Part shown: positions 2,614 to 62,364 of the stretch, piece after piece
How positions within the stretch are numbered: the stretch's first letter is position 1
How the letters are laid out: each line of letters starts with the position of its first letter
Assembly (NCBI GenBank): GCA_045636665.1
Contig: JAZTXY010000086.1
Coordinates: 72,031-136,030, forward strand
Source: Eubacteriales bacterium
GTDB lineage: Bacteria; Bacillota; Clostridia; Oscillospirales; CAG-382
Reading direction: 5' to 3'
DNA: 64,000 bases
The notes under the pieces: generated by a model
The model's input: only the letters and a program-made list of their open reading frames with translations
Told to the model about the DNA's origin: nothing
Databases searched by the model: none
Made by a program: the position numbers and the translations under genes

Positions 2614-2693
2614 GCCCTTCAAGTCCCTTCAAAACAAAACCAAAAAGCACCCATAAAGGGTGCTTTTCGCTTTTGGTGCAGCTGATGGGACTT
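2614..2693. repeat. 80-bp direct repeat, copy 2: overlaps the genuine 3' end of tRNA-Leu and its terminator
   Basis: Same 80 bp as 2433-2512. Identity ends inside the T-arm of the tRNA (..GGGACTT). Confidence 0.9.
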
Positions 2694-2756
2694 GAACCCA
2701 TACGGTTGCCCACACGCCCCTCAAACGTGCGCGTCTGCCAGTTCCGCCACAGCTGC
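2674..2756 (-). tRNA. tRNA-Leu (anticodon GAG), CCA encoded
   Basis: The reverse complement reads GCAGCTG-TG-...-CACGT-TTGAGGG-GCGTG-long variable arm-GGGTTCAAGTCCC-CAGCTGC-A-CCA. 83 nt, class II long-arm tRNA. Confidence 0.9.
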
Positions 2757-30359: not shown

Positions 30360-33300
30360 ATGGCAAACTTTTTTCTTGAAATATTCAATTTGAGCTTGGC
30401 GGCTTGTTGGCTTATCGGAGCTATTGTAGCCGTGCGCGCAATTTTCGCAAAAAGTATGCCGAAGTGGCTTGTCTGCTGTCTTTGGGGCTTGGTTGCGGTA
30501 AGATTGCTTGTTCCCGTTACGCTTGAAAGCAATATATCGCTCGTTCCCAATCAACAGCTCGAGCTTTTAATCCCGAACGAAGGCATCGGCGAGGTTTCGG
30601 AATATGTTGAAGAATCGCTTCCTTCTTTTGAAGAAAATGGTATCGATTCAACTGTTTCGGCGCCTGTAACCGATGAAGCCGTGTCATCGCCCGTAACCGA
30701 CGAGGAATTTTCCGCGCCGATTGTCGATGAAACCGTTTCTTCGCCCGTAACCGACGAAGAAGTATCTTCCCCCGTAACCGACGAAGCCGTTTCTGCCCCG
30801 ATTATCGAGGAAAATGCTTCTGCGCCCGTGACCGATGAAAATATATCGGCTTCGGTTCAGGATACCGTTATCGGCGACCAAAATACCGAAGATGTCGGCA
30901 AAACCGACGTTGCAGTTAACGGCAATATCGTTCAATCGGAAAAAACGGAGCATTCAAAAAAGGTTTCGAGCAATTTTGCCACAATTGCGTTTGCGGTATG
31001 GGCAATCGGATTCTTTTTGATGCTTGAATATTCGGTCGTAAGCTATATTCTCCTCAAAAAACGCGTTGCAATGTCGTTCCCTTGCGGCGACAAGGTACGC
31101 AAAGGCGAGGGCGTGGATTCTCCGTTTATTTTCGGACTTTTCCGTCCGCGTATTTATATCCCTTTCGGATTAAGCCAAAGAACCGAAGAATGTGTTATTG
31201 CGCATGAAAGAGCGCATTTTAAACGCCGCGACTATCTTATAAAGCCCTTTGCGTTTTTCATTCTTTCGGTGCATTGGTTCAATCCCTTCGTATGGTTGGC
31301 TTATATCCTTCTTTGCCGCGATATCGAATATGCCTGCGACGAGAAGGTCGTTGACGGTCTTGACGCCGATTCGCGTAAAGCGTACGCCCTTGCGCTGCTC
31401 GAATGTGCAGTCGCGCACCGACGTATTACCGCTTGTCCCGTAGCTTTCGGCGAGACCGGAGTGAAAGAAAGAGTGAAAAATACAATGAAATACAAAAAAC
31501 CCGCATTCTGGATAGTTATTGTTTGCGTTATCGTTTGCATTGCCGTTGCCGTGCTGTTTTTAACAACGGGCGTGGGCGGAAGTGAGGATTCCGACACCTC
31601 GTCGGAGGCATCGGACACCTCGTCGGAGGCATCGGACCCCTCGTTGGAGGCATCGGGCGAAAATCAAGTTGAACAAGACGAGAAAAATTATATCGATGAC
31701 CTTTTCGCGGCTGAATTTGTCGAATACGAGGATCTCGGCAAATACCAAAACTGCGTAAGGTTTGAATCGAGCGTTGAATACAACGTAATGAGCGTGCTCA
31801 TTACACCCAAGACAACGATATACGATTTTAAAATATATTCGTTGGAAGACAATATCGATACCGTAACACTTGAAAACATTCTTTTTGAAGCAAAAAGCAT
31901 TTCCGCCGATAAGCCGCTTCTTGCGGATATTGAGTTTGGCGATATACTTGCCGAAAACGGAATATCGTTTACCGACGAAAACGGTAATGAGTATCTTTAT
32001 AAACTTGTCGATAGTGCGTACGACGGAAAATTGATAGTTTCCGACGTGACGACGGAAGCGTCCGAGGAGAGCGATGGCACCCTTATAGTAAACGGTATCG
32101 ACATTACCAAAGGAAGCGGCGTGAAAATCTATGACGACCGTGCTGAGTTGCCTTTTGTCGCTATAATGGAAGCGTTGGGAATATCGTTTGAATGGAAAAC
32201 AGACAGCACTGCCATAATGACGTACGGTTCGATTAAACCGTATCTTTTAGACGTAAAAAAAGGAGAATTGACCGACTATGTCGGAGGTGACGGCAGAAAT
32301 CACTTTACGGCATACAGCGATTCACCTCTCGGTTTTGTTTCTCTTGAAAAAGAAATATTGATTGACGATGTCAATGCTGCTGCGTTTTTCTCCGAAATGG
32401 GTTTTGTGTTCAGAATTTCTTACTTTGATATAAATTTCAAAGATAAGATTATCAGTATCGGCAGAGATACAAATGATTATAAATGCACGCTCATTGTAAA
32501 CGGAAATGATATTACCGACAGCACTCATGTAGTTATGAAAAGCGATGATGGCAATTATACGCTTTTGCCGTTCGTTGAGATTATGGAGGTGCTTGGAGCC
32601 GAATTTGAATGGGAAAGTGACTATGTTGCAAAAATAGAATTTCTCGAAATGCGGTTTGCGTTGAATGTAAAAGAATGCAAATTAATCGCCGAAGAAAATG
32701 ACGTTAATCTTATTAGTCCGCCGTTGGGAGGAACAAGAAAATTCTCTGCCGACAAGAAGGAATTAATAGTCGACAATGTTACATTAAAACAATTTTTTGA
32801 TGCCGCGGGAATTAACGCGCTATATGACTATAACAAAAAAATTGTTACGATCAGCACAAAATCTTCGGGGAACGAAGCAAGCAACAACGAACCCCACGTT
32901 CACGTTTACGGGGAATGGAAAACGGTTACTGCCGCGACCTGTCAAAGTACGGGTGTGGTCGAGCGTGTTTGCTCTTGCGGTGACAAGCAGCTTCAAAGCG
33001 TGAATATAACTCAGCATAAATACGTCAACGGCGTTTGCTCTTGCGGTGCGATCGAAAGCGCAAGCGACATCGAGGACGGAACGTTGACGTTCAGTATGAC
33101 AAACGGCGGATATAAGGTTTCGGGAAAGGGTTTTAACGGCAGCGTGGTCGTTATCCCGAGCACCTTTATGGGAAAGCCGGTTGTTGAGATTGCTCAGGAT
33201 GCATTTGGCGGAAACCGCAATATCGAAAGAGTCGTGATTCCCAAAACCGTTAAAACGATTGGTAGTCATGCGTTTTTGCATTGCTTTTTCCTTAGAGAGG

Positions 33301-34340
33301 TTATTTTTGAAGAGGGAAGCGAGCTTATAAGCATCGGCGACAGCGCGTTCAATAACACCGCGATCGTTTCGATAACACTGCCCGAGGGCTTAAAAACCAT
33401 CGGTGAGGGTGCGTTCAATTCCTGCGACGATATGAAGGAAATAACTCTGCCCTCTACGCTTAAATCAATCGGCAGTAACGCCTTCAGATACTCTACCGTT
33501 AGCAAGGTTACTGTCAAAGACATAGGCAAATGGTGCACTGTTTCGTTTGGTAACGAATATGCTAACCCTGCATATATTTCGCAAAGCCTTTATGCTCCCG
33601 ACGGCTCTTTGGTTACAAGAGTAAACGTTTCCAACGGAGCGTCCGAGATATCGGCGTATGCCTTTTGCGGAGTGAAAACCATCGAAAGCGTAAGCATTCC
33701 GTCGACCGTTAAGAAAATCGGAGTCGATGCGTTTGCAGATTGCAAGACTCTTGACGTTTATATTACCGACCTCACAAAATGGGCACAGGTTTCTGTTGCG
33801 AGTGCAGATTCTCTGCCCGGCAAGCGACTGTTTCTTAACGGTGTCGAGATAAAGGACGTCGTTATTCCCTCGGGTGTCACCTCGATAGGAAGCTATGCCT
33901 TCAGCTTTGCATCGCTTACCTCGGTCACCGTGCCCGATACCGTGAAAACCATCGGAGAGGGTGCTTTTCACTATTGCACAAATCTTCAAAGCATAAAGCT
34001 TTCAAAGAACCTTACCGAAATACCGAAGAATATGCTTTACGGTGCATCGTCGTTGAAGACGGTTGTTATTCCCAATACGGTAAAAACTATTGGTGAATCG
34101 GCATTTGAGGGTTGTATCTCGCTTGAATCGATGTTCATACCCGCAAGCGTTACCTATATCGGAAAGCACGCGTTTGAAAATTGCGGTAGCTTGAAGGAAT
34201 TTGAATTCGAGGTCAAGGACGGCTGGGTATGCGCCGCAACCGGTGGCGACTATACGGTCCATGCAAGCGATCTTTCAACATCGTATAAAACGATAGCAAA
34301 GATAAAGGATTACAATTTTGCACCGTGGGTGCGAAGATAG
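30360..34340 (+). CDS. M56 (BlaR1/MecR1-type) membrane metalloprotease fused to a ~900-aa extracellular region (Cu-amine-oxidase-N-like x2, Cys cluster, ~12 BspA-type LRRs)
   Basis: IAHERAHFKRRDYLIKPF (HExxH) sits between TM helices. LIVNGxDIT..LPFVxIMExLGxxFEW occurs twice. Repeated IPxTVKxIGxxAFxxC units run to the C-terminus. Confidence 0.8.
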   Translation: MANFFLEIFNLSLAACWLIGAIVAVRAIFAKSMPKWLVCCLWGLVAVRLLVPVTLESNISLVPNQQLELLIPNEGIGEVSEYVEESLPSFEENGIDSTVSAPVTDEAVSSPVTDEEFSAPIVDETVSSPVTDEEVSSPVTDEAVSAPIIEENASAPVTDENISASVQDTVIGDQNTEDVGKTDVAVNGNIVQSEKTEHSKKVSSNFATIAFAVWAIGFFLMLEYSVVSYILLKKRVAMSFPCGDKVRKGEGVDSPFIFGLFRPRIYIPFGLSQRTEECVIAHERAHFKRRDYLIKPFAFFILSVHWFNPFVWLAYILLCRDIEYACDEKVVDGLDADSRKAYALALLECAVAHRRITACPVAFGETGVKERVKNTMKYKKPAFWIVIVCVIVCIAVAVLFLTTGVGGSEDSDTSSEASDTSSEASDPSLEASGENQVEQDEKNYIDDLFAAEFVEYEDLGKYQNCVRFESSVEYNVMSVLITPKTTIYDFKIYSLEDNIDTVTLENILFEAKSISADKPLLADIEFGDILAENGISFTDENGNEYLYKLVDSAYDGKLIVSDVTTEASEESDGTLIVNGIDITKGSGVKIYDDRAELPFVAIMEALGISFEWKTDSTAIMTYGSIKPYLLDVKKGELTDYVGGDGRNHFTAYSDSPLGFVSLEKEILIDDVNAAAFFSEMGFVFRISYFDINFKDKIISIGRDTNDYKCTLIVNGNDITDSTHVVMKSDDGNYTLLPFVEIMEVLGAEFEWESDYVAKIEFLEMRFALNVKECKLIAEENDVNLISPPLGGTRKFSADKKELIVDNVTLKQFFDAAGINALYDYNKKIVTISTKSSGNEASNNEPHVHVYGEWKTVTAATCQSTGVVERVCSCGDKQLQSVNITQHKYVNGVCSCGAIESASDIEDGTLTFSMTNGGYKVSGKGFNGSVVVIPSTFMGKPVVEIAQDAFGGNRNIERVVIPKTVKTIGSHAFLHCFFLREVIFEEGSELISIGDSAFNNTAIVSITLPEGLKTIGEGAFNSCDDMKEITLPSTLKSIGSNAFRYSTVSKVTVKDIGKWCTVSFGNEYANPAYISQSLYAPDGSLVTRVNVSNGASEISAYAFCGVKTIESVSIPSTVKKIGVDAFADCKTLDVYITDLTKWAQVSVASADSLPGKRLFLNGVEIKDVVIPSGVTSIGSYAFSFASLTSVTVPDTVKTIGEGAFHYCTNLQSIKLSKNLTEIPKNMLYGASSLKTVVIPNTVKTIGESAFEGCISLESMFIPASVTYIGKHAFENCGSLKEFEFEVKDGWVCAATGGDYTVHASDLSTSYKTIAKIKDYNFAPWVRR
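30654..30869 (+). repeat. 27-nt (9-aa) tandem repeat x8 inside the M56 gene
   Basis: VSAPVTDEA / VSSPVTDEE / FSAPIVDET ... The copies diverge at synonymous sites. Confidence 0.85.
31593..31655 (+). repeat. 21-nt tandem repeat x3 (DTSSEAS linker) inside the M56 gene
   Basis: GACACCTCGTCGGAGGCATCG occurs twice, followed by one diverged copy. Confidence 0.85.
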
Positions 34341-45596: not shown

Positions 45597-47150
45597 ATGA
45601 ACAGAAAAGAACTTCACGATAAGATTGCAGAGGTATCGAAAACGATTTTTTCGTACTGTATGGCGAAAACACCCACACGGGAAGAAGCCGAGGATTTATC
45701 GCAGGATATTTTGTGCGAGCTGTTGAAATCGGCGGAAAACATCCGTGATGACAGGGCGTTTTACTCTTTTATGTGGGGCGTTGCAGGAAACGTCTATAAG
45801 CAATGGTACAGGAAGAAACTAAAAAATACTGCAAGCGAATTGACAACCGAAATTCCAACGGAAGATGCTTTCATTGAAGACGAAAACAATGATATATATC
45901 TTTTGCGTCGCGAATTGACTTTGCTGTCGGAAAAACACCGTAAAGCAACGATTATGTACTATGTCGACGGACGTTCTTGCTCGGAAATTTCATCTGCGCT
46001 CTCCGTTACGGAAAATACGGTGAAATATCTGCTTTTTAAATCGAGAAAAATATTGAAAGAAGGAATGAATATGGAAAGAAATCTTGGCGAATTAAGCTAT
46101 AATCCGAAAACATTAATCCCGATGTATAGCGGTCATGGCCCTAACCAATTTTGGGAGTTTATGCAGAGTAAAATAAGACAGAATATCGTTAGCGCTTGCT
46201 ATAACGATGCGCTTACAGTTCAGCAAATCAGCCTCGAAACAGGTATCCCGCTTCCGTATCTTGACGATGAAATTAAAGAACTTGAAGACAAACAAATCAT
46301 AATTAGAGAAGGAAAACACTACAAAGCAAATGTGATTATTATAACATCCGAGTGTGCCGACGAAATTGAACGTGCTGTTGCAAAAAATCATGAACAGATT
46401 GCTGATAAAATGACGACTTTTATTAGCGACAAGTTAAATGAATATAAAAATCTTAACTTTGTAGGTCACGATTTTTCGGATAACACATTGCGATGGCAGC
46501 TTGCTACCATTCTTTTTAGAATGATCTGCGTGGTGGATTGCAGTGATACCATAGATGCACCTAAAACAGGATGGGGCGAATCTGCTTATCTTTGGTGTGT
46601 GGAGAAGTTAAACGAGAAACATATATTCTCTTATTGCGGTGTGGATGATAAACACGGAAACAGTTTATACTTTTTTGACTATTGGAAAGACCGCAAGGGA
46701 AAGGGCGATCATCACGATTTTTACGGAAAAGAACGTTATATCAATATTTTCTGTGACATCTGTCGCGAGAACCATGCTTCTTTCAGCGAATATGATCTTG
46801 AAGCAATTGCAGAAATGATAAAAAAAGGATATGTTATCAAGGAGAACGAAACTTACAAAGCCACCGTTCCTGTTTACTCTTTGGAACAATATCTAACCAT
46901 TATCAATATTGCAAAGGAATTTATATCCGCCGAACTTGTATCGATTGTTCGAGAAATGGATAAAACCGCCGCACAAATTTTAAGTGCACATACGCCAAAG
47001 CATTTGCAGAGTCAGGTGGCAGGAATTGCCTCTATGGATAAGTTTGTTAATGCCGTTTGCATTCCCGCAACCATTCTTATCGAAAGACAATTTTTGAGCA
47101 CCGCATGGCATCCTCTTGAAATGCCTGCCACATACGTTGTTTTGAAGTAA
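45597..47150 (+). CDS. Sigma-70 family (ECF-like) sigma factor fused to a ~330-aa C-terminal domain of unknown function
   Basis: AAGGAGG RBS. Region 2 (EEAEDLSQDILCELL) and region 4 (YYVDGRSCSEISSALSVTENTVKYLLFKSRKIL). No TM helix. AT-richer codon usage. Confidence 0.7.
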   Translation: MNRKELHDKIAEVSKTIFSYCMAKTPTREEAEDLSQDILCELLKSAENIRDDRAFYSFMWGVAGNVYKQWYRKKLKNTASELTTEIPTEDAFIEDENNDIYLLRRELTLLSEKHRKATIMYYVDGRSCSEISSALSVTENTVKYLLFKSRKILKEGMNMERNLGELSYNPKTLIPMYSGHGPNQFWEFMQSKIRQNIVSACYNDALTVQQISLETGIPLPYLDDEIKELEDKQIIIREGKHYKANVIIITSECADEIERAVAKNHEQIADKMTTFISDKLNEYKNLNFVGHDFSDNTLRWQLATILFRMICVVDCSDTIDAPKTGWGESAYLWCVEKLNEKHIFSYCGVDDKHGNSLYFFDYWKDRKGKGDHHDFYGKERYINIFCDICRENHASFSEYDLEAIAEMIKKGYVIKENETYKATVPVYSLEQYLTIINIAKEFISAELVSIVREMDKTAAQILSAHTPKHLQSQVAGIASMDKFVNAVCIPATILIERQFLSTAWHPLEMPATYVVLK

Positions 47151-48038: not shown

Positions 48039-48116
48039 TGGGGTGGCTGACCGGGTTCGAACCGGCGACCCCCAGGGCCACAACCTGGTACTCTAACCAG
48101 CTGAGCTACAGCCACC
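48039..48116 (-). tRNA. tRNA-His (anticodon GUG) with encoded G-1 and CCA
   Basis: G-GTGGCTG-TA-GCTC...CCAGG-TTGTGGC-CCTGG...GGTTCGAACCC...CAGCCAC-C-CCA. Confidence 0.9.
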
Positions 48117-48119
48117 ATA

Positions 48120-48196
48120 TGGCGTGCCTTGAGGGACTCGAACCCCCGACCTACTGCTTAGAAGGCAGTTGCTCTATCCGGCTGAGCTAAAGGCAC
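48120..48196 (-). tRNA. tRNA-Arg (anticodon UCU), CCA encoded
   Basis: GTGCCTT-TA-GCTCAGCCGGATAGAGC-A-ACTGC-CTTCTAA-GCAGT...GGGGGTTCGAGTCCCTC-AAGGCAC-G-CCA. Confidence 0.9.
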
Positions 48197-48245
48197 ATTT
48201 AATTAACCGAGCCGAGGGGTTTCCTCTCTCTGTGTGATCGTAAAA

Positions 48246-48319
48246 TGGAGCGGGTGACGGGAATCGGACCCGCGCGACCAGCTTGGAAGGCTGGGATTCT
48301 ACCATTGAACTACACCCGC
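48246..48319 (-). tRNA. tRNA-Gly (anticodon UCC), CCA encoded
   Basis: GCGGGTG-TA-GTTCAATGGTAGAA...CCAGC-CTTCCAA-GCTGG...CACCCGC-T-CCA. Confidence 0.9.
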
Positions 48320-48775: not shown

Positions 48776-49678
48776 ATGTTCGAAAAGCGTACGGATCTCG
48801 CCCTTGAGGTGCATGAATTGCACGGAAAAGACTCGGGCATAAGCGTAAATGAAGTAACCGTCGGTGAAATTACCGTAACCTATGCCGATATAAAGGATGG
48901 AGAAGGTGCGCTTCTTTCGGGCAAGCCCGCAGGGAGATATATCACCTTCGACGTCGGTGAGCTTCACAAAAAGGGAAGCGACGAGTTTGTTGCCGCCGCA
49001 ACGCTGATAGCCGATGAGATGAAGGGGTTGTTTCCCGATAATTGCAAAAGCTTTCTTGTTGTCGGATTGGGAAACGAATCGATAACGCCCGATTCGGTCG
49101 GGCCCAAAGCCGTGAAAAAATTACTCGTCACACGCCACATCGAATTTATCGACAAAACGCTTTATAACGACGCAGGCTTTGGCAACCTCGCCGCAATAAG
49201 CCCCGGCGTTTTGGGACAGACGGGAATTGAAAGCAGGGATATTATATCGGGCGTGGTGCAAAAAGTCAACCCCGATTGCGTAATTATTATCGATTCTCTC
49301 GCGTCGCGCCGTCTTGCCCGTCTTGCAACCACGGTTCAGCTTTCAAACACCGGCATTTCACCCGGCTCGGGAGTTGACAACAGACGCGTTGAATTGAGCA
49401 GAGATACGCTTGGTGTTGCCGTGATATCGATTGGAATCCCAACCGTTGTCGACGCCGCAACGCTTGCTTGTGACCTGCTCGAGGAGGCGATAGGGGAGGA
49501 AAACGAAGCGCTTAACCAAATTATCGAAAAGGTGTTTTCGACCGACCGAAAAGGTATGTTCGTAACGCCGAAGGAAAATGACGTTATCGCAAAAAACTCG
49601 GCGAAGCTTATCGCAACGGTGATAAATATGGCGGTTCACAATATGTCCGTTTCGGAAATTAACGGCTTTTTGTCATAA
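48776..49678 (+). CDS. gpr: Germination protease (GPR endopeptidase)
   Basis: MFEKRTDLALEVHE..., GLGNESITPDSVGP and IIIDSLASR motifs. Confidence 0.85.
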   Translation: MFEKRTDLALEVHELHGKDSGISVNEVTVGEITVTYADIKDGEGALLSGKPAGRYITFDVGELHKKGSDEFVAAATLIADEMKGLFPDNCKSFLVVGLGNESITPDSVGPKAVKKLLVTRHIEFIDKTLYNDAGFGNLAAISPGVLGQTGIESRDIISGVVQKVNPDCVIIIDSLASRRLARLATTVQLSNTGISPGSGVDNRRVELSRDTLGVAVISIGIPTVVDAATLACDLLEEAIGEENEALNQIIEKVFSTDRKGMFVTPKENDVIAKNSAKLIATVINMAVHNMSVSEINGFLS

Positions 49679-49720
49679 AGCTTGTCCCTTGTGAATATAA
49701 TTACACGAGGAAGTGATAAA

Positions 49721-50812
49721 ATGAAAAGAAGATTGACACTTAACCAAAGACAAGCGCTTCTTAAATGGGGCTGCTTGGTGCTGTCGGCGCTGATGCTTGT
49801 CGGAGTATTTACGGCGATACCGTATATTGTAAACGCACTGCCGAAAATGGATAGCGAAACGGTGCGCGACGTATTAAACGGAAACGAGGCGATGGGAGGG
49901 GCAATTCCGCAATATCCGCTTGGCGGAGGAAGCTTTGAAACGTCAAACGAAACGTCTGTCCCCGATGAAAACGAGGGAGAATTCGAACCCGAGGAGCCCA
50001 TCCCCATACCCGAACAGGGGGAATACGACCTATCGGTAACTCCGAGCAATCTTGCTTGGTATGATGCGACCGAAACGCCGATGCTTAATATAATCAACCG
50101 CACTAAGTACTCGGTGAACCTTAATTCCTTTCTGACAAGACCTTTCCCGATAAACACCGAAATAAACGATTCGCCGTTGGTGCTTATCGTACATACTCAC
50201 GGAAGCGAAAGCTATCTTGAAAGCGGATACGATTTTTATTCGCCCGACGAAACATTTCGCTCGCAGGAGGTCGAAAAAACAGTGGTTCACATCGGAGAGG
50301 TGCTGTGCGAAAAGCTTAATTCGTTGGGGATAGGAACGGTTCACGATACAACGATGTACGACCTTACCGATTTCAACAAATCCTATAATTACTCGCGCGA
50401 GGGGATAAAAGCCGCCCTTTCGAAATATCCCACAGTTCGGTTCGTTATCGACCTTCACCGCGATTCGGTTTTCGATTCGGACGGCAACAACATTAAACCG
50501 CTGACAACGCTTAACGGCAAAAAATGCGCTCAGCTTATGCTTGTGGTCGGCACCGACGAGGGCGGCTCGGCTCATCCCGATTGGCGCGATAATTTAACCT
50601 TTGCAACGCATCTTCAACAAAAAATGAACGATTACTATCCAACCCTCGCAAGACCGATAAATCTGCGCACCGCTGCATTTAACCAAGCGCTCACAAAGGG
50701 CAGTGTTCTTTTGGAGGTGGGCTCTTGCGGTAACACTGTCGAGGAGGCCGAAAACGCAGTTTTGCTTTTTGCTCAAGCGTATGCAAGTATGCTGAAGGAA
50801 AATTTAAAATAA
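49721..50812 (+). CDS. spoIIP: Stage II sporulation protein P
   Basis: GAGGAAGTG RBS. N-terminal TM helix. IVHTHGSESY and VIDLHRDS motifs. Confidence 0.8.
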   Translation: MKRRLTLNQRQALLKWGCLVLSALMLVGVFTAIPYIVNALPKMDSETVRDVLNGNEAMGGAIPQYPLGGGSFETSNETSVPDENEGEFEPEEPIPIPEQGEYDLSVTPSNLAWYDATETPMLNIINRTKYSVNLNSFLTRPFPINTEINDSPLVLIVHTHGSESYLESGYDFYSPDETFRSQEVEKTVVHIGEVLCEKLNSLGIGTVHDTTMYDLTDFNKSYNYSREGIKAALSKYPTVRFVIDLHRDSVFDSDGNNIKPLTTLNGKKCAQLMLVVGTDEGGSAHPDWRDNLTFATHLQQKMNDYYPTLARPINLRTAAFNQALTKGSVLLEVGSCGNTVEEAENAVLLFAQAYASMLKENLK

Positions 50813-50851: not shown

Positions 50852-51118
50852 TTATTTCGTATTTATTTCATATCTGACGAGAATCGTATCCTTGCCGATG
50901 CGTTCGATGTCACGCCAAGGAATAACCGTTCGGTTTTTGGTCGAAAGCGAAGCGAGCAACCCGTTGCCGGGGATGATTAGCGCGGTTATTTCGCCCGTGC
51001 AGGTGTTTACTTCGAGGTCGCCGATGCAGCCGAGCAGACTGCCGTCGCAAAGATTGATTACCTCTTTGTTTTTAAGCTCGGAAAAGCAGGATATGACGGG
51101 TATCAAAGCAGTATGCAT
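50852..51118 (-). CDS. ymxH: YlmC/YmxH-family (PRC-barrel) sporulation protein
   Basis: SELKNKEVINLCDGSLLGCIGDLEVNTCTGEITALIIPG. Overlaps the spoIVA stop by 16 nt. The exact start is uncertain. Confidence 0.75.
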   Translation of the reverse strand: MHTALIPVISCFSELKNKEVINLCDGSLLGCIGDLEVNTCTGEITALIIPGNGLLASLSTKNRTVIPWRDIERIGKDTILVRYEINTK

Positions 51119-52578
51119 ATCAAACCGCCGCTGCCCTCGTTGATGATGCGCTGAATCGTACCCGCAATCTTTGCCCGTGCATCGTCGGGCATATGGGCGA
51201 GCTTGCTGTTAAGCCCCTCGCTTACAAGCTCGTGGAGTGTTTTGCCGAACATATTCGATTCCCAAATGCTTTTCGGGTCTTCCTCGAACTCCTTTAAAAG
51301 GAAGCTCACAAGCTCCTCCGATTGGCTTTCGGTTCCGACAATCGGATTTACCTCGGTTTCGATGTCGGCCTTCATCATGTGGATAGAGGGCGCGCTTGCC
51401 TTTAATTTCACGCCGTAACCGCCCGGCTGCTTTACGATTTCGGGCTCTTCAAGCGTAAGGTCGTCAATCGAGGGCATAACGATACCGTAACCGTCGTTCA
51501 TAGCATCGTCGATAGCGCCTGCGACCTTGTCGTATTTCTTTTTAACTTCGGCAAGCTCGGTCATAATGGTAAGCAACGCGCGTTCGTTTTCGATTTCAAA
51601 TCCGCTCTTTTCACCGAGTATGCCGTAAAAGATTCTGTCGGGGATGCGAACGTCGATTGCCGCGCTTCCTTTGCCGAGGTCAAGACGGTCGAGCTTTGCC
51701 GTCATATCGCCGCCTTGGGCAAATGCTTCCGCCGCATCGCGTATTTCACCGACACGTCTTAAGCCGTTTACCGTTTCGGTAACCGCGGAAAACAAATTGG
51801 CTCTCAGCTCATCGTTTTCGTCAAGCACGTCGATCCAGCTCGGAAGCGAAAAAGCAACCTCGCGTACGGGAAATTCATAAAGCAAGCCGCGAAGGATGTC
51901 CTTGATGTCCGAATCGTCCATATTTAAGCAGTTTATCGGGATAACGGGCACGTCGTATTCCTCTTCGAGCTTGTTTGCCAAAGCTGTCGATGACTGTGCG
52001 TTCGGGTGCGCGCAGTTCAAAACCACAACGAACGGCTTGCGCAACGCCTTTAATTCCGAAACGACACGAGCCTCGGCTTCCTCGTATGCCTCTCTCGGCA
52101 ATTCACCGACAGTGCCGTCGGTCGTAACAACAATACCGACGGTCGAATGCTCCTCGATAACCTTTCGCGTTCCCGTTTCTGCGGCGGCTTCGAAGGGAAG
52201 CGGCGATTCCGACCAAGGCGTCATAACCATTCTCGGATGACCGTCCTCGATAAGACCCATTGCGCCGGGTACGATGTATCCGACACAGTCGATAAGCTTG
52301 ACTCGGCATTCGGTTTCTTCGTCAAGCGGAATGCTGACCGCCGATTCGGGGATGAATTTCGGCTCGGTGGTCATAACCGTCTTTCCCGATGCCGATTGCG
52401 GCATTTCGTCCTTTGCTCTTTCCCGTGCAGACTCGGTTTCGATGTTAGGTAAAATAAGGTTTTCGGTAAACCTCTTGATAAGAGTCGATTTTCCCGTTCT
52501 TACGGGTCCGACGACCCCAATGTAAATGTCACCGCCCGTGCGGTTCGCTATGTCACTGTATATTCCCATATCGGTCAT
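51103..52578 (-). CDS. spoIVA: Stage IV sporulation protein A
   Basis: AAGGAGG RBS. DIYIGVVGPVRTGKSTLIKRF Walker A motif. 491 aa. Confidence 0.9.
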   Translation of the reverse strand: MTDMGIYSDIANRTGGDIYIGVVGPVRTGKSTLIKRFTENLILPNIETESARERAKDEMPQSASGKTVMTTEPKFIPESAVSIPLDEETECRVKLIDCVGYIVPGAMGLIEDGHPRMVMTPWSESPLPFEAAAETGTRKVIEEHSTVGIVVTTDGTVGELPREAYEEAEARVVSELKALRKPFVVVLNCAHPNAQSSTALANKLEEEYDVPVIPINCLNMDDSDIKDILRGLLYEFPVREVAFSLPSWIDVLDENDELRANLFSAVTETVNGLRRVGEIRDAAEAFAQGGDMTAKLDRLDLGKGSAAIDVRIPDRIFYGILGEKSGFEIENERALLTIMTELAEVKKKYDKVAGAIDDAMNDGYGIVMPSIDDLTLEEPEIVKQPGGYGVKLKASAPSIHMMKADIETEVNPIVGTESQSEELVSFLLKEFEEDPKSIWESNMFGKTLHELVSEGLNSKLAHMPDDARAKIAGTIQRIINEGSGGLICILL

Positions 52579-54232: not shown

Positions 54233-54261
54233 TTGACACCCGATAATAATTGTGATATAAT
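54233..54261 (+). promoter_or_regulatory. Sigma-A type promoter for rlmB
   Basis: TTGACA-N17-TATAAT. Confidence 0.65.
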
Positions 54262-54292: not shown

Positions 54293-55075
54293 ATGAAAGA
54301 TAACAAAAAATTCACGAAAAAATTTAATGACGAACAACCGCAGGAAGGCCTTTTCGTCGGACGTAACGCCGTTATGGAGCTGCTTCGCAGCGGCAGAACG
54401 GTTGACCGCATATATATTCGCAACGAGCAATCCGAAGGTGTGCTCGGCGCGATTCGTGCGCGTGCGTCGGAAAACCGCATCCCGTTGGTTGAAACCGACC
54501 AACGTAAGCTTGATAAGCTTGCCGACGGTTTGGTTCATCAGGGTGTTATTGCCGTTGCGGCGGAAACCGATTATTTAACGGTGGAAGAGCTTTTGGCAAT
54601 CGCCGATAAAAAGGGAGAAAAGCCGTTTTTCCTTATTTGCGATTCGATAAACGATCCTCACAACCTCGGCGCGCTTATCCGCAGTGCCAACTGTGCGGGC
54701 GTCAACGGCGTTATCATTCCGAAAAGACGCGCCGTCGGCGTTAACGGAACGGTTGCCAAATCAAGCGCAGGCGCCGTTTTTGCAATGCCCATCGCAAGAG
54801 TGTCCAACCTTGCAAGCGCGGTGAAAACGCTTAAAGAATGCGGCGTTTGGATTTGGGCGGTCGAGGCAGGCGGAAGACCTTATTACGAACAGGATTTCAA
54901 AGGAGCCTGCGCGCTCATTCTCGGAAGTGAGGGCGAAGGAGTATCCGATATACTCAAAAAGGAAAGCGATTTTATTGCAGGTATCCCGATGTACGGCACC
55001 GTAAATTCGCTTAACGTGTCCAATGCCGGCGCAATAGTTATGTTTGAAGCCGCAAAACAACGAAATTCCAAATAA
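54293..55075 (+). CDS. rlmB: 23S rRNA (guanosine-2'-O)-methyltransferase RlmB (SpoU/TrmH family)
   Basis: GRNAVMELL substrate-binding N-terminal domain. DSINDPHNLGALIRSA, LILGSEGEG and SLNVSNA motifs. Confidence 0.85.
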   Translation: MKDNKKFTKKFNDEQPQEGLFVGRNAVMELLRSGRTVDRIYIRNEQSEGVLGAIRARASENRIPLVETDQRKLDKLADGLVHQGVIAVAAETDYLTVEELLAIADKKGEKPFFLICDSINDPHNLGALIRSANCAGVNGVIIPKRRAVGVNGTVAKSSAGAVFAMPIARVSNLASAVKTLKECGVWIWAVEAGGRPYYEQDFKGACALILGSEGEGVSDILKKESDFIAGIPMYGTVNSLNVSNAGAIVMFEAAKQRNSK

Positions 55076-55099
55076 TTACCTAAAAAGCAGGTGAATAAA

Positions 55100-57628
55100 A
55101 TGCCAAGCTCCAAGAACGGCAAACAAAATTTGGATATACTCGAGTTGCTTCGTCAAGCGGAGGAAAAAAACCACTCCGATATGAACGCAGGGACTGCCGA
55201 ACGCAAACCAGAATTGGAAAAGACGCTTGTTGCAGATTCGGAAACACCTCCCCAAAAGCGCACAAAGGTAACCAAACGCATTAATGCCGAAACAGCCGAG
55301 CTTATAGATCGGTACAGCACCAGAAAAGAAAATAAATCTTTAAGCGATACCCAAAAATTAAGAATGAAGCTTGCTGAGCAAAATGAAAATTCCGAGCTTT
55401 TGGGTTATCTTGCCGAAGAAAAACAACCCGCCAAAAGCGAGCGTGTCGACAAGCTTTATGAAATGATTAACGACGCGCGCACACGCACGCTTTCGGATCT
55501 CGAGAAAAAGCCGCCCGTGGGAATTAAATCCACGCGCTTTTCCGATGAACCCATTCCCGAAAAGCAGGAATATACTCAGGAGCAAATGTTCCCTCTCGGC
55601 GATACGATTCATTTTGATGACGATATCAATGAAACCGAGGTTGCAAGCTTTGACTCCGATTACGAGCAACTGACCGAAAAGCTCGAAAAGCGCGAAATCG
55701 ATTTTGACAACGAAAACGAAAACGAAGGTCAGGTGCGTTTCGTTGCCGATGACGATAAGCTTGAGGTTTTGGGCGAAGAGCTTGACGAAACCGATATAAA
55801 CCTTCGTCTTGCATTCGAAATGATGGAGGACGAGGAAGGCACGCTTAAAAAGATCGCGGAACGAAACCGCGAAAAGAGCAGAGCCGAAAAAGAAGGACGC
55901 GACGGTGAAAACCGCGTTAAATATACCTCGCGTGAGCAAAATTCCGAAATCGCTTCGCATTTCCGCAAGCGTATGCGTAAGTCGCTTATCCGCATTATCA
56001 TCGTCGGTATCCTTGCGCTCGGAATACTGTTTTTGGAAATTGCTTCCAAGGACAGCGGTATGCACGGCGATTTTGCAAAGCAGGGAAGATACGGAATAAT
56101 TTATATCCTTATCGATCTTCAGCTTTTGTTCTTTATCGCAATTGCGATGCTCGGCTCTATCCGCAACGGCTTATCGGGGATTTTCAAGCTCCGCTTGAAT
56201 ACCGACAGTCTGCTTGTCGTTTCAATCTTTTTTGCGGCGGCATATTCGTTGGTAACTCTGTTCGGAAACCCCTATGCGGCAGATCTTAAGCTTTATAATC
56301 TGCCTGCGGCGTTTGCGGCGTTCTGCGCGGCGGTTTCGGGCTATATGTGCGCCAAAAAGGATTACCGATGCTTCAGAATCGTTGCGTCGAAGCGTCCGAA
56401 ATATACCGCTTGCGAGCTGACCGGCGGCACGAAAGAGGCTGACGAATTTTACAAGTATCTTTTTGAAGACAGCGATATTTATACCGTTAAACGCGCTCAC
56501 TTTATCGACGGCTTCGTTGAAAGAACCGAAAAGCGCACCAAGTTTGAAGACGTTCTTAACTTTATAATTCCGCTTATCTTTTTTGCGGGCGCAGCTCTTT
56601 TTATCACAATGAGCGTGCTCGGAAGCGAAATTTACGATGCATATACCGCATTTTCGGTATTGCTCGCGGCGAGCGTTCCCGCGACCGCGTTTTTCGTGTT
56701 TACTTTGCCTACCGTTTCGGCAAACCGCGTCGGCGTGAAGCATTCAACCGCTTTCATCGGTAATGCGATAGCCGAAGAATATGCGACCGCATCGGTGCTT
56801 TCTTTTGCCGATACCGAGGTATATCCCGCAAGTCTTGTTAAGATAACCAACATCCGTATGTACGGCGACTTCCGTATCGATGAAGTGCTTACCGATATGG
56901 CGAAGGTGTTCAAATACGTCGGCGGCCCGCTTTCGAAGGTGCTTTCCGCAACCCTTAGCGAGCAGGTCGAAAACCCCAACGCGATAAGAGTTATCGAAAG
57001 CGCAAACGACGGACTTTGCGTTGCTATGGACGGTCACAACTATTTCCTCGGCAAGCGTTCTTATATGCGCCGTTACCGTTTCGAAACGATTGTTGACGAG
57101 GGTGACGATTCTTATGACCGCAACGGCGGCTCGGTTATGTACGTCGTCGTTGACGAAAAGCTTGCAGCAAAGCTTTACATTAAATATACCCTCAACCCCT
57201 TGTTCGATTCTCTCCTTCGCGATATGTACAAGGCGGGCTTGTGTCTTGGTGTAAAAACGCTCGACCCGAACATCAACAACGAAATGATCGCTTCACAGGT
57301 CAAGTTCAAAAAGTGCCCCATTTCGGTGCTTCGCGGAACCGACCCAGAGGAGGTTATGGGAGAGGTTGAAAACGCAACGAGCGGTATCGTTTGCAACTCG
57401 ACGCTTCACAATTTCCTTAAGATGTTTTCACTTTGCGATAAAGCGCGTCACGCTACCAAAAGCAATATCATCATCAGCGTGGTCAGTGTTGTGCTGTCGT
57501 TTGCCGCTGTCGCGTTCCTTTCGGTTACGGGCGCGATAGGAGCAATCACGTCGGTTCACGCGGTTGCATTCCAACTGTTTTGGCTTCTTCCGATATGGTT
57601 GATATCGTTTTTGATGTTAAGAAAGTGA
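55100..57628 (+). CDS. Degenerate P1B-type ATPase homologue (no phosphorylation, CPC, TGES or GDGxND motifs) with a ~300-aa acidic N-terminal extension
   Basis: AGGTG RBS before the ATG at 55100. Collinear with CopA-type pumps: FKLRLNTDSLLVVSIFFAAAYSL; AASVPATAF in place of ACPCALG; SFADTEVYPAS in place of DKTGTxT; KTLDPN in place of TGDN. Confidence 0.65.
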   Translation: MPSSKNGKQNLDILELLRQAEEKNHSDMNAGTAERKPELEKTLVADSETPPQKRTKVTKRINAETAELIDRYSTRKENKSLSDTQKLRMKLAEQNENSELLGYLAEEKQPAKSERVDKLYEMINDARTRTLSDLEKKPPVGIKSTRFSDEPIPEKQEYTQEQMFPLGDTIHFDDDINETEVASFDSDYEQLTEKLEKREIDFDNENENEGQVRFVADDDKLEVLGEELDETDINLRLAFEMMEDEEGTLKKIAERNREKSRAEKEGRDGENRVKYTSREQNSEIASHFRKRMRKSLIRIIIVGILALGILFLEIASKDSGMHGDFAKQGRYGIIYILIDLQLLFFIAIAMLGSIRNGLSGIFKLRLNTDSLLVVSIFFAAAYSLVTLFGNPYAADLKLYNLPAAFAAFCAAVSGYMCAKKDYRCFRIVASKRPKYTACELTGGTKEADEFYKYLFEDSDIYTVKRAHFIDGFVERTEKRTKFEDVLNFIIPLIFFAGAALFITMSVLGSEIYDAYTAFSVLLAASVPATAFFVFTLPTVSANRVGVKHSTAFIGNAIAEEYATASVLSFADTEVYPASLVKITNIRMYGDFRIDEVLTDMAKVFKYVGGPLSKVLSATLSEQVENPNAIRVIESANDGLCVAMDGHNYFLGKRSYMRRYRFETIVDEGDDSYDRNGGSVMYVVVDEKLAAKLYIKYTLNPLFDSLLRDMYKAGLCLGVKTLDPNINNEMIASQVKFKKCPISVLRGTDPEEVMGEVENATSGIVCNSTLHNFLKMFSLCDKARHATKSNIIISVVSVVLSFAAVAFLSVTGAIGAITSVHAVAFQLFWLLPIWLISFLMLRK

Positions 57629-57676
57629 ATAAATTGAAAAATTTGTCAATTTGCGATAAAAATATAAAATTTCCTC

Positions 57677-57705
57677 TTGATTAATTTGACTTTTTGATAT
57701 ATAAT
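57677..57705 (+). promoter_or_regulatory. Sigma-A type promoter for the EF-G-like gene
   Basis: TTGATT-N17-TATAAT. Confidence 0.6.
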
Positions 57706-57756
57706 GTGTACCGTATATAAATGTATGCATCAATAATTTACGGAGGAATTATAACA

Positions 57757-59787
57757 ATGGCGAAATTTACATCTTCTCAAATCAGAAATATATGTCTTGT
57801 AGGTCACTCCGGTGACGGTAAAACTTCCTTTGCAGAAGCTATGCTTTACCTTGCAAAGGTTACCGACCGTTTGGGTAAGCCCTCGGAAGGTAACACCGTT
57901 TGTGATTTCGATCCCGAAGAAATTAAAAGAGGATACTCTATCTCCGCTTCTCTTGCCAGCCTTGAATGGAACGGCACGAAGATAAATATTCTTGATGCAC
58001 CCGGTATGTTCGGTTTTGCAGGCGAATCGAAGGCGGCTGCTTTCATCGCGGCAAGTACCGTTATCGTTGTAGACGCAAAGAGCGGCTGCAAGGTTGGTAC
58101 CGAGCTTGCATGGGAATTCTCTGCGGGTAAGCCCAAGGCATTCTTTGTAAACAAGGTTGACGATGAAAACTCCAACTTTGAAGGCACATTTGCCGGTCTT
58201 CGTGAACAGTTCGGCGCATCCGTATGTCCTCTCCTTATCCCCTTCAACGAAGGCAGCGGTCAGGTAGGATTTTACAACCTCATCACCGATGAAGTTTTCT
58301 ATTGCGAAAAGAACGGCAACCGTGTTGAAACCACCGTTCCCGCAAACTTTACCGATAAGATCGAAGAATATAAGCTCGCTCTTAACGAATCCTTGGCGAT
58401 CACAAGCGAAGAGCTTATGGAAAAATTCCTTATGGAAGAGCCCTTCACCTCTGAAGAAAAGCTTCACGCACTTAATTCGGGTCTTCTCAGCGGCGATATC
58501 GCTCCCGTATTCTGTGGCTCTGCAACCGCTCTTGCGGGTATCCGCTTCTTCCTTGATACTGCTGCGGCTTCCTTTGTATCTCCTCTTGAAGCGATGAAGG
58601 ATGCAGACGAAAACGGCGAAACAAAGCTCTTCGTATTCAAGACCCTTTCCGATAACTTCGGTAAGAAGGTATTCTTTAAGGTTATGAACGGTACCTTGAC
58701 AAAGGATCAGGTTCTTAACAACATTTCTACCGGTCAGCAGGAAAAATTCGCAAAGATTTGTACCGCTATCGGTAAGAAGGAAATCGAATGCAACGAATTT
58801 GTTACCGGTGATATCGGTTATGCGGTAAAACTCAACAATACCAACGTTAACAATACTCTCGTAGCAGGCGCAACGGGCGAAGAATTCAAAAAGATCGATT
58901 TCCCGACTCCCTACTACACCATGGCTATCAAGCCCCTTTCGAAGAACGACGAAGACAAGATCTCTACCGGCATTACCAAGCTTCTCGAAGAAGATCCCAC
59001 CCTTCGCTACTTCAACAATGCGGAAACCAAGCAAATGACCGTTTCCGGTATGGGCGATATCCACCTCGACGTTGTCTGCGCTAAGCTCAAATCGAGATTC
59101 GGCACAGGCGTTGAACTTATCGAACCGAAGATTGCATACCGCGAAGCAATCAAGAAGACCGTTCAGGTTGAAGGTAAGCACAAGAAGCAGTCCGGCGGCT
59201 CTGGTCAGTACGGTCACGTTAAGATTACCTTTGGTCCCGGTCAGGAAGACGGCCTTACCTTTACTCAAAGCGTTGTAGGCGGTAACGTTCCGAAGAACTT
59301 CTATCCCGCAGTTGAAAAGGGTCTTCAGGAAGCAATGCTCAAGGGCGTTCTTGCAGGCTTCCCCATGGCAAACCTTGCCGCTGACCTCTTCGACGGCTCT
59401 TACCACCCCGTTGACTCCAATGAAATTTCCTTTAAGCTTGCTGCTAAGCTCGCGTTTAAGGAAGGTCTTCCCAAGGCAAGCCCCGTTATTCTCGAACCTG
59501 TCGGATATCTTAAGTGCACCATCCCGACATCCTACTCGGGCGATATTATGGGTGACGTAAGTAAGCGCCGCGGCAGAATTATGGGTATGAGCGAAAGCAC
59601 ACGCAAGGGCTATACTGTTATCGAAGCGGAAATTCCTTCTGCGGAAATGACCGTTTACGCCGTACAGCTCCGCGCTATGACTCAGGGCAGAGGTACTTAC
59701 ACATTTGACTTCGTAAGATACGAAGAAGCTCCTGCTGAAGTTGCTCAAAAGGTTATCGCAGAAGCAAAGAAAGACGCTGAAGAATAA
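57757..59787 (+). CDS. Elongation factor G paralogue (divergent G domain, PGH changed to PGM)
   Basis: GGAGGA RBS. GHSGDGKTS (G1), DAPGMFGF (G3) and NKVD (G4). Domains II-V are collinear with EF-G. 676 aa. Confidence 0.8.
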   Translation: MAKFTSSQIRNICLVGHSGDGKTSFAEAMLYLAKVTDRLGKPSEGNTVCDFDPEEIKRGYSISASLASLEWNGTKINILDAPGMFGFAGESKAAAFIAASTVIVVDAKSGCKVGTELAWEFSAGKPKAFFVNKVDDENSNFEGTFAGLREQFGASVCPLLIPFNEGSGQVGFYNLITDEVFYCEKNGNRVETTVPANFTDKIEEYKLALNESLAITSEELMEKFLMEEPFTSEEKLHALNSGLLSGDIAPVFCGSATALAGIRFFLDTAAASFVSPLEAMKDADENGETKLFVFKTLSDNFGKKVFFKVMNGTLTKDQVLNNISTGQQEKFAKICTAIGKKEIECNEFVTGDIGYAVKLNNTNVNNTLVAGATGEEFKKIDFPTPYYTMAIKPLSKNDEDKISTGITKLLEEDPTLRYFNNAETKQMTVSGMGDIHLDVVCAKLKSRFGTGVELIEPKIAYREAIKKTVQVEGKHKKQSGGSGQYGHVKITFGPGQEDGLTFTQSVVGGNVPKNFYPAVEKGLQEAMLKGVLAGFPMANLAADLFDGSYHPVDSNEISFKLAAKLAFKEGLPKASPVILEPVGYLKCTIPTSYSGDIMGDVSKRRGRIMGMSESTRKGYTVIEAEIPSAEMTVYAVQLRAMTQGRGTYTFDFVRYEEAPAEVAQKVIAEAKKDAEE

Positions 59788-61405: not shown

Positions 61406-61473
61406 AAATTTAAATCTGCTTTGTCCTTTTTATTGTACAGCGAATCGGATATAATAGGCACGAGGTGATAAAA

Positions 61474-62364
61474 ATGGTATTTTTAAAGCAAATCGAACTG
61501 CCCGATCAATTCAAAGAAGAAAATATTTTAAATGCCGAACGGCGCACCTGCTTTAACGGTGTTTATCCGTTTCGCATATTTCCGCAAAAAAGGTTAAGCT
61601 TTATCGATTTTGCGCCGATAACACTGCTTTACGGCGGAAACGGGTCGGGCAAAACTACCCTTCTTAACGTAATTGCCGAGAAGGTAAATGCGATAAGGCA
61701 TTCGGAATACAGCAAAAGCGCGTTTTTTGACCGTTATATTGCGCCTTGCAAAATTTACGGCGACGAAATTCCCGAAATAAATCAAATGCTTTCGAGCGAT
61801 GACGTTTTTGATTACGTATTGAATATCCGTTATCTCAACAACGGAATCGATGAGCACCGCGAACAGCTTTTTAAAGGATACACTACAATGAAGCGCGGTA
61901 TTCAATCGGGTAACAGCGAGCTTTTGCGGCTTCACGGATTGGACGATTATGACCGTTGGAAGGAGCATTACGATGCGATATCGAAAACGCAGTCGCAGTT
62001 TGTGAAGGAACGCCTTGCGCGTAATATCGATATGAATTCGAACGGCGAAACGGCGATGCGATATTTCACCGACCATATCGACAGCAATGCGATTTATCTT
62101 ATCGACGAGCCCGAAAACAGCTTGTCGGTGCAGTTTCAAATCGAGCTTGCGAAATATATCGAGGATTCCGCAAGATTTTTCAACTGTCAGTTTATTATTT
62201 CAACCCATTCGCCGATATTTCTTGCAATGAAGGACGCGAAAATTTACGACCTCGATTCCTGCCCTGCGCGGACTAAAAAATGGACCGAGCTTACGAACGT
62301 GCGTAAATATTTTGAATTTTTCGAATCGCACCGCGACGAATTTTTGTTGACAAACGGCGATTAA
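61474..62364 (+). CDS. Stand-alone AAA/ABC-like ATPase (Walker A, Walker B, no partner gene)
   Basis: GAGGTG RBS. LLYGGNGSGKTTLLNVI and IYLIDEPENSLS motifs, and THSP (H-loop). Confidence 0.7.
   Translation: MVFLKQIELPDQFKEENILNAERRTCFNGVYPFRIFPQKRLSFIDFAPITLLYGGNGSGKTTLLNVIAEKVNAIRHSEYSKSAFFDRYIAPCKIYGDEIPEINQMLSSDDVFDYVLNIRYLNNGIDEHREQLFKGYTTMKRGIQSGNSELLRLHGLDDYDRWKEHYDAISKTQSQFVKERLARNIDMNSNGETAMRYFTDHIDSNAIYLIDEPENSLSVQFQIELAKYIEDSARFFNCQFIISTHSPIFLAMKDAKIYDLDSCPARTKKWTELTNVRKYFEFFESHRDEFLLTNGD

Follow-up and report, generated by a model that had tools for sequence, protein, structure and literature searches.

In a 64,000-nt stretch of DNA (contig JAZTXY010000086.1, positions 72,031 to 136,030 of the forward strand; hereafter called the window), the gene at 55100-57628 encodes a true homologue of the P1B-type ATPases in which no catalytic signature is intact, and the gene is not decaying. 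Few membrane enzymes are as well understood as the P-type ATPases, whose catalytic motifs are regarded as universal. We consider that the protein is probably a maintained, non-pumping P1B derivative that serves as a membrane scaffold or sensor, a reading that we hold with some reserve. In the following, we present its homology and fold, the loss and conservation of its motifs, the readings that may account for them, and its genomic setting and known relatives.

Homology and fold of the encoded protein

The uninterrupted reading frame opens at 55091 (GTG) or 55100 (ATG) and closes at 57628 on the forward strand. The ATG at 55100 is the likely start, because the ribosome-binding sequence AGGTGA precedes it with a 5-nt spacer. 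An earlier, first-pass annotation of the window had described a frame intact over 843 codons from this position, with native codon bias. Both statements are correct: the frame comprises 842 residues and a stop, and, of 16 genes tested, it shows the closest correlation in relative synonymous codon usage (RSCU) with the rest of the window (r=0.95).

The relationship to P1B pumps can be recognized from the sequence. The NCBIfam model TIGR01525 (heavy-metal P-type ATPase) matches residues 485-735 with E=1.7e-9, at 37 bits against a cut-off of 346, and a phmmer search with the protein finds the L. pneumophila CopA (3rfu) with E=3e-6. Profiles made from 65 close or 48 diverse family members reach the same CopA with E=2e-9 and 6e-10, respectively, and the family profile also matches CadA, weakly. 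A Pfam search of the protein matched no family, E1-E2_ATPase and Hydrolase included.

An AlphaFold2 model was built on a 65-sequence alignment, with a predicted local distance difference test score (pLDDT) of ~85-92 over residues 280-842. When this model was compared with the PDB by Foldseek, the top 12 matches were P1B pumps; CopA 4bbj was the best (E=2.8e-17), followed by ATP7B, CopA 3rfu and 7r0g, CadA and ZntA, with KdpB and the P2/P3 pumps lower. The alignments with P1B pumps cover ~680 columns at 11-14% identity. The model has the eight-helix P1B topology (MA, MB and M1-M6) with cytoplasmic actuator (A), phosphorylation (P) and nucleotide-binding (N) domains, collinear with CopA, in which the P- and N-domain folds are retained and the A domain is present only as a stub. 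The modelled helices span residues 278-314, 332-362 (kinked), 368-389, 401-428, 481-506, 511-546, 769-810 and 818-841. The collinearity with CopA-type pumps claimed in the first-pass annotation is borne out by both the hidden Markov model (HMM) alignments and Foldseek, and the P-type homology on which that claim depended was found by TIGR01525 as well as by structure.

The part ahead of the membrane domain had been described as acidic, probably disordered and free of metal-binding domains, and its composition agrees. Residues 1-285 contain 24.6% D+E and 16.5% K+R, have a net charge of -23, mostly score pLDDT<50 and hold no Cys motifs. Across the family, the length of this N-terminal region ranges from 30 to 629 aa with a median of 285, D+E make up 26.5% of it at the median, and it is essentially Cys-free. 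Since there is nearly no Cys, and CxxC occurs in only 1 of 162 members, these regions are not HMA domains. Members with a long N-terminus, including a 1,890-aa relative, showed no recognisable extra domains. That relative (P0260, from an ENA metagenome), over twice as long as is usual, aligns at 19% identity over 67% of the query, and its extra part is without a Pfam domain.

Loss and conservation at the former catalytic site

The equivalences between the motifs of the protein and those of active pumps were read from HMM alignments against CopA, and the conservation counts given here were taken from a 162-member family alignment. In M4, V526-P527-A528 stands in the place of CPC. The proline is present in 158 of the 162 members, both Cys are lost, and the flanking positions are hydrophobic family-wide (L, M, V, T or I at 526; L, A, V or I at 528). 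DKTGT is replaced by A570-D571-T572-E573-V574, preceded by F569 and followed by Y575-P576. In the N domain, EHPL becomes G608-G609-P610-L611, with the nucleotide-binding His lost; what remains of GxG...GN is G651 and one Gly of GxG (G638), with Lys in the place of the Asn. TGD, which is motif II of the haloacid dehalogenase (HAD) fold, reads T720-L721-D722; its Gly is lost, while D722 is found in 161/162 members and T720 in 146 (161 when Ser is counted).

Two parts of the cytoplasmic head are shortened. The stretch from M1 to M3 is 74 residues shorter than that of CopA, and the segment after TGD is ~39 residues shorter. In the model, the strand 763-765 is followed by C-N-S-T-L-H, which leads directly into the M5 helix without any of the acidic residues of HAD motif IV. 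Position 770 is basic in 138/162 members (H in this protein, K in most of the family). The A-stub measures 52-54 aa in 143 members and the spacing from TGD to M5 is constant at 65 aa across the family; the truncations are therefore ancestral to the family.

A regular-expression check of the protein for TGE[SAT], DKTGT, CPx, TGD, GDGxND and CxxC found none of them. The first-pass annotation was right about the change of DKTGT to ADTEV, about the shortened actuator domain without TGES (now seen as a 52-aa stub) and about the absence of GDGxNDAP. Its reading of CPC as SVP captured the loss of both Cys and was one residue off in register, the equivalent being VPA. Its broader statement that every catalytic signature is replaced stands in so far as none is intact, but it was overstated, as the T and D of TGD and the M4 proline are kept and D571 is present in 161/162 members. 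As an internal control, a P2-type (Ca2+-ATPase/YloB-like) ATPase of 805 aa encoded in the same window (8839-11253, +) keeps TGES149, PEGL265, DKTGT308, TGD477 and GDGVND550. Because this neighbour keeps all of them, the losses are specific to the gene described here and are not a habit of the lineage.

The gene is maintained, as had been proposed. Against the four closest orthologues (92-95% amino acid identity, dS 0.67-1.0), the Nei-Gojobori ratio of nonsynonymous to synonymous substitution rates (dN/dS, or omega) is 0.033-0.047, similar to that of the flanking methyltransferase gene (0.03-0.05) and EF-G paralogue gene (0.03-0.10). Within the gene, the values are 0.02-0.03 for the core and 0.04-0.075 for the first 280 codons; the N-terminal tail is likewise under purifying selection. 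All 80 GTDB species loci retrieved encode the protein, of which 79 aligned nearly full length and one is cut by a contig end.

The family is large. An exhaustive HMMER search of 1.84 billion representatives, clustered at 50% identity, gave 2,376 matches at E<=1e-3, 1,674 at E<=1e-10 and at least 420 at E<=1e-30, many of them 750-1,200 aa long and aligning with the C-terminal 600 residues. In cluster look-ups and further database searches, every source record seen was a metagenome-assembled genome of uncultured Clostridia, Eubacteriales or Oscillospiraceae; an alignment-based database search mostly recovered close relatives. The database labels are 'hypothetical protein' or 'cation transport ATPase'. 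Neither Pfam nor NCBIfam has a model for the family: the Pfam search was empty for 48 diverse members, 33 of which give only sub-threshold TIGR01525 matches. No description of the family was found in the accessible portions of the literature on pseudo or inactive P-type ATPases, FUPA families and P1B variants, including Palmgren 2023 and PMC3573892.

Conservation in the family is highest in residues 561-620 and 681-740, which make up the former catalytic region, and is lower in the membrane helices. Essentially invariant are K434, F468, P527, P537, G554, F569, D571, G609, P610, L611, G651, K691, Y696, D722, P723 and W828. Because no other part of the protein is as well conserved as the region of the phosphorylation site, we regard it as a remodelled functional site and not as a relaxed one. 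Only half of the earlier description as a maintained pseudo-enzyme can be taken over directly: the protein is maintained, and 'pseudo-enzyme' is an inference. The family contains two covarying subtypes. The clade of this protein has A570-D-T572-E with N766 and H770, and the larger subtype has [D/E]570-D-[K/R]572-[E/D] with [K/R]766 and K770. Residues 572 and 770 covary, K with K and T with H, which is consistent with the motif-I and former motif-IV segments facing one pocket.

Readings of the remodelled head and the membrane domain

The protein is most likely unable to run the E1/E2 ATP-driven transport cycle, to judge from its motifs. However the phosphorylation site is aligned, the Mg2+ ligands, the TGE loop, the membrane Cys residues and the His of HP are lost, and because of these losses a normal P-type cycle is considered very unlikely. 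In the reading that we favour, the P1B scaffold has kept its eight helices and its P and N folds and has lost the metal site, the dephosphorylation machinery, the Mg2+ hinge, the nucleotide-binding His and, in the clade of this protein, the phospho-Asp too (Ala570). The former catalytic pocket would have been rebuilt as a constrained site (D571, K691, Y696, T720, D722, P723, N724 and the basic residue at 770), and a cytoplasmic tail would have been added that is long, acidic and mostly disordered and carries the two conserved motifs next to the membrane. The protein would be made from a sigma-70 promoter together with a housekeeping RlmB/YacO-like rRNA methyltransferase. Its head may bind a small ligand or a partner protein instead of ATP or phosphate, its acidic tail may recruit basic partners, and its role may be vegetative and lineage-wide in a clade of uncultured Clostridia.

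Several points weigh against this reading. The loss of activity is deduced from the motifs alone; the near-invariant D571, the kept T720 and D722, and the D or E at position 570 in 61% of the family could mean residual or altered phosphoryl chemistry; and the linkage to rlmB may perhaps reflect shared expression only, not shared function.

The second of these points leads to an alternative that we regard as unlikely, in which the head is still catalytic with unconventional motifs and acts as a phosphatase, a phosphotransferase or a slow ATPase, possibly coupled to the membrane. D571 (or D570 in the majority subtype) would then be the nucleophile, E/D573 the acid/base of a DxD/DxE-like motif I, and T720 motif II, and the part of Mg2+ or motif III would fall to K691 or to a Lys or His at 766 or 770. 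The conservation of the site fits such a role: besides D571, E/D573 is present in 137/162 members and T/S720 in 161/162, the region is the most conserved of the protein, and the family version of the motif reads S-F-[D/E/A/N]-D-[K/T/R]-[E/D]-V-F-P, with F-D-D-I-D-A-F in the most divergent member of the first family search. In the model, the strand 564-570 (beta-1) ends at A570, D571 is the first loop residue and E573 follows at +2. However, in three independent profile alignments it is position 570 that matches the phospho-Asp, and D571 matches the Lys (n+1), so that the residue of this protein at the phosphorylation site is Ala570, in line with the first-pass annotation. These alignments are ungapped, and the spacing from F569 to the next strand (K581) is the same as in CopA, with no indel needed; for these reasons, we consider the canonical register probable, in preference to a one-residue shift that would make D571 the nucleophile. 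Position 570 varies across the family (D in 66 members, 41%; E in 33, 20%; A in 32, 20%; N in 11, 7%; S in 8), being D or E in most of the wider family and Ala only in the clade of this protein. The acidic motif-IV Mg2+ ligands are all gone together with the last P-domain strands, the HP His is lost, and there is no TGE for dephosphorylation.

A passive conduit is another conceivable use of the scaffold, and one to which we give little weight. Here the membrane domain would be an ATP-independent channel, a facilitator or an extracellular cation sensor, gated or regulated by the head. In favour of such a role, conservation extends to all eight helices, to the M4 proline and to the unwinding of M4, and the conserved polar residues E313, D339, Q341, Q825 and W828 cluster in the outer halves of MA, MB and M6. 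But the canonical ion site is hydrophobic family-wide at 526 and 528, the M5 Asn is only 70% conserved, and the membrane helices are less conserved than the cytoplasmic head.

Genomic setting and known relatives

The features of the gene and its surroundings are collected in Table 1. The methyltransferase gene and the degenerate pump gene lie on the same strand with a gap of 24 nt here and of 20-45 bp across the family, and neither a terminator-like site nor a separate promoter-like site was found between them. This arrangement is nearly constant: 79/80 GTDB loci and 5/5 distant members (24-31% identity), or 84/85 in all, have the methyltransferase gene immediately upstream of the degenerate pump gene and in the same orientation. 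The degenerate pump gene would thus be the second cistron behind the methyltransferase gene, with the operon layout taken from the sequence and co-transcription predicted from it, and the promoter at 54233..54261 probably drives this two-gene operon. Other neighbours are less constant. In the close subfamily, the EF-G paralogue is found downstream in 65/80 loci and the AlgX-like SGNH protein in 69/80, and the distant members have an EF-G paralogue, a radical-SAM/DUF2344 gene or pyruvate:ferredoxin oxidoreductase nearby. No MBOAT partner for the AlgX-like protein was seen in the stretch examined. In two distant loci (L081, 5409-7957; L083, 4930-6956), the methyltransferase gene is preceded by genes for a small SigH-like sigma factor and a zf_Tbcl zinc-finger protein. 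This is reminiscent of the gene order rlmB-yacP-sigH in Bacilli; the degenerate pump gene occupies the position after rlmB that yacP (rae1) has in Bacillus.

Table 1. Coordinates of the degenerate P1B-type ATPase gene, its parts and its neighbours in the window
Feature	Coordinates	Strand	Remarks
Sporulation cluster	Gpr 48776-49678, SpoIIP 49682-50812, SpoIVA 51103-52578 (minus strand)		2-6 kb upstream of the degenerate pump gene
Sigma-70-type promoter, TTGACA-17-TATAAT	54233..54261	+	Extended TG, 12/12 matches; upstream of methyltransferase gene
SpoU/TrmH-family (RlmB/YacO-like) RNA 2'-O-methyltransferase gene	54293..55075	+	Pfam SpoU_methylase and SpoU_sub_bind
Ribosome-binding site AGGTGA	55089..55094	+	5-nt spacer to ATG at 55100
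Degenerate P1B-type ATPase homologue	55100..57628	+	Complete open reading frame, 842 aa and stop
Acidic N-terminal region (aa 1-272)	55100..55915	+	Mostly low-confidence/disordered, short conserved helices, no CxxC
Juxtamembrane motif D229-x-x-D232-x-N-L-x-x-A-F-x-M (helix 230-238)	55784..55822	+	Conserved in family
Motif [E/K]274-[Y/F]-T-S-x-x-Q280, leading into MA	55919..55939	+	Conserved in family; K274 here, E274 in family motif
Transmembrane helices MA (aa 296-314), MB (333-362, kinked), M1 (368-389), M2 (401-428)	55985..56383	+	AlphaFold2 model; conserved polar E313, D339, Q341
Actuator-domain stub, 52 aa	56384..56539	+	Two strands and two short helices, no TGE; K434, E446, F468 conserved
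M3 (aa 481-506), M4 (511-546)	56540..56737	+	AlphaFold2 model; M4 unwound at P527
V526-P527-A528, CPC (M4) equivalent	56675..56683	+	HMM alignment; proline alone kept
S-F-A-D-T-E-V-Y-P, x-F-D-K-T-G-T-L-T equivalent	56801..56827	+	HMM alignment; A570 on phospho-Asp, D571 on Lys
G-G-P-L, N-domain E-H-P-L equivalent	56921..56932	+	HMM alignment; Glu and His gone
K691, family-specific Lys	57170..57172	+	157/162 members; hinge strand, hydrophobic residue in CopA
K-T-L-D-P-N-I, L-T-G-D-N equivalent	57254..57274	+	T720, D722, P723 essentially invariant
S-G-I-V-C-N-S-T-L-H-N-F-L, in place of GDGxNDxP hinge	57380..57418	+	No acidic Mg2+ ligands; last P-domain strands deleted
M5 with stalk (aa 769-810; N789), M6 (818-841)	57404..57622	+	Q825, W828 conserved in M6
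EF-G paralogue, 688 aa, all five EF-G domains	57721-59787	+	Directly downstream of the degenerate pump gene; own promoter-like sites at 57643-57705
AlgX-like SGNH hydrolase/acetyltransferase-domain protein, 500 aa	59845-61347	+	Omega 0.12-0.25, faster than neighbours

A role in sporulation, raised as a question in the first-pass annotation, would be compatible with the scaffold reading and would make the protein a membrane protein produced in the mother cell or forespore and at work in spore morphogenesis; we see only a slim chance of it. The presence of the Gpr, SpoIIP and SpoIVA genes in the window identifies the host as a member of the endospore-forming Clostridia. These genes lie a few kilobases upstream, and Gpr and SpoIIP genes also occur near 2/5 distant members. 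However, the sporulation genes are not adjacent, their strands vary, and they are absent from the other three distant contexts. The sole constant partner is a housekeeping-type SpoU/RlmB-like gene with a perfect sigma-70 consensus promoter, and the degenerate pump gene behind it has no promoter-like site of its own. The idea thus finds no direct support, and the evidence points to vegetative co-expression with a housekeeping rRNA-modification gene, not to a sporulation operon.

A decaying pseudogene, an artefact or a chance resemblance to P-type pumps, for which the empty Pfam search and the score far under the NCBIfam cut-off might speak, is refuted by omega values of 0.03-0.05 at dS 0.67-1.0, near-full-length orthologues in 79/80 loci (the remaining one cut by a contig end), conserved synteny, hundreds of family clusters, native codon use and a structural search whose top 12 matches are P1B pumps (E=2.8e-17).

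Several other genes in the window may be mentioned briefly. The gene at 61465-62364 (+) encodes a 299-aa AAA_15/AAA_21 (AbiEii-like/SMC-type) ATPase, which may be what is left of a defence system or a piece of one; the related loci are not syntenic here, save for a weak match in one of them (L072). At 30360-34340 (+), a 1,326-aa protein combines a BlaR1-type M56 peptidase/sensor, a Cu_amine_oxidN1-like part and BspA-type leucine-rich repeats, which is an unusual architecture for a signal transducer. In the 517-aa protein encoded at 45597-47150 (+), the first ~155 residues hold sigma-70 regions 2 and 4, and a long uncharacterised extension follows at the C-terminal side; the gene is a candidate for horizontal acquisition, since both its GC content (0.39) and its codon usage (RSCU r=0.55) are unusual in this window. 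Rfam and tRNA scans of the window gave only four tRNAs at the gathering threshold, none near the degenerate pump gene: a tRNA-His/Arg/Gly cluster at 48039-48319 (-) and a lone tRNA-Leu at 2674-2756 (-).

A bolder proposal, which we offer as a speculation that is distinctly unlikely to hold in this form, is that these proteins are the first recognised bacterial 'pseudo-pump' family. A P1B scaffold would have been exapted into a membrane platform throughout a lineage of uncultured gut Clostridia, and its rebuilt pocket and acidic tail would act with the translation apparatus, for instance by tethering or regulating the RlmB-type 23S rRNA methyltransferase of the same operon, the EF-G paralogue or ribosomes at the membrane; or else Asp571 would be the site of metal-independent phosphoryl chemistry in the pocket, with Lys or His in the place of Mg2+.

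The near-absolute linkage to an rRNA methyltransferase gene is a concrete, testable lead to function. A large and strongly selected family that has the fold and no intact motif implies that the scaffold is reusable beyond pumping, and in this family one can see, as in a natural experiment, what remains possible for the P, N and membrane domains without a phosphorylation cycle. The protein is a P1B homologue that fails most of the defining features and should not be annotated as a cation-transporting ATPase, and the hundreds of 'cation transport ATPase' or 'hypothetical' proteins of this family should be left out when the metal pumps of gut and rumen Clostridia are counted.

Among known systems, the best match in sequence and structure is with the P1B-1 pumps CopA (L. 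pneumophila, 3rfu/4bbj) and human ATP7B (7si3/7si6). They share with the protein the eight helices, the unwinding of M4 at a proline, the Rossmann core of the P domain, the N-domain fold, the T and D of TGD and a QN-like Asn in M5. Unlike them, the protein has no CPC, DKTGT, TGE, HP, GDGxND or CxxC/HMA domains, at an identity of 11-14%; its A domain is ~74 residues shorter than that of CopA, the C-terminal P-domain strands are deleted, and a long acidic disordered N-terminus is present. Its family has in turn acquired the new near-invariant residues D571, K691, Y696, P723 and N724. CadA (7qbz), ZntA (4umw/4umv) and HMA4 (8q73), from other P1B subgroups, and KdpB (5mrw) are the next-best structural matches, with E values of 1e-14 to 1e-10, but each of them is an active pump whose catalytic motifs are intact. 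With the HAD phosphatases and phosphomutases (motif I DxDxT/V), the protein shares a D571-x-[E/D]573 that resembles DxD and the motif II Thr (T720). It differs from them in that D571 falls on n+1 in the alignment register, the acidic motif IV is missing, the motif III Lys is not assignable, and the domain is set inside a P-type scaffold. A precedent may be FUPA family 24 of the Saier classification, reportedly treated by Chan et al. in 2010, in which a type-I (heavy-metal) P-type module is said to have lost its function and yet to be retained in the protein. That dead module is reportedly fused to an active type-II ATPase in Actinobacteria, whereas the protein described here stands alone and forms a large family of its own.

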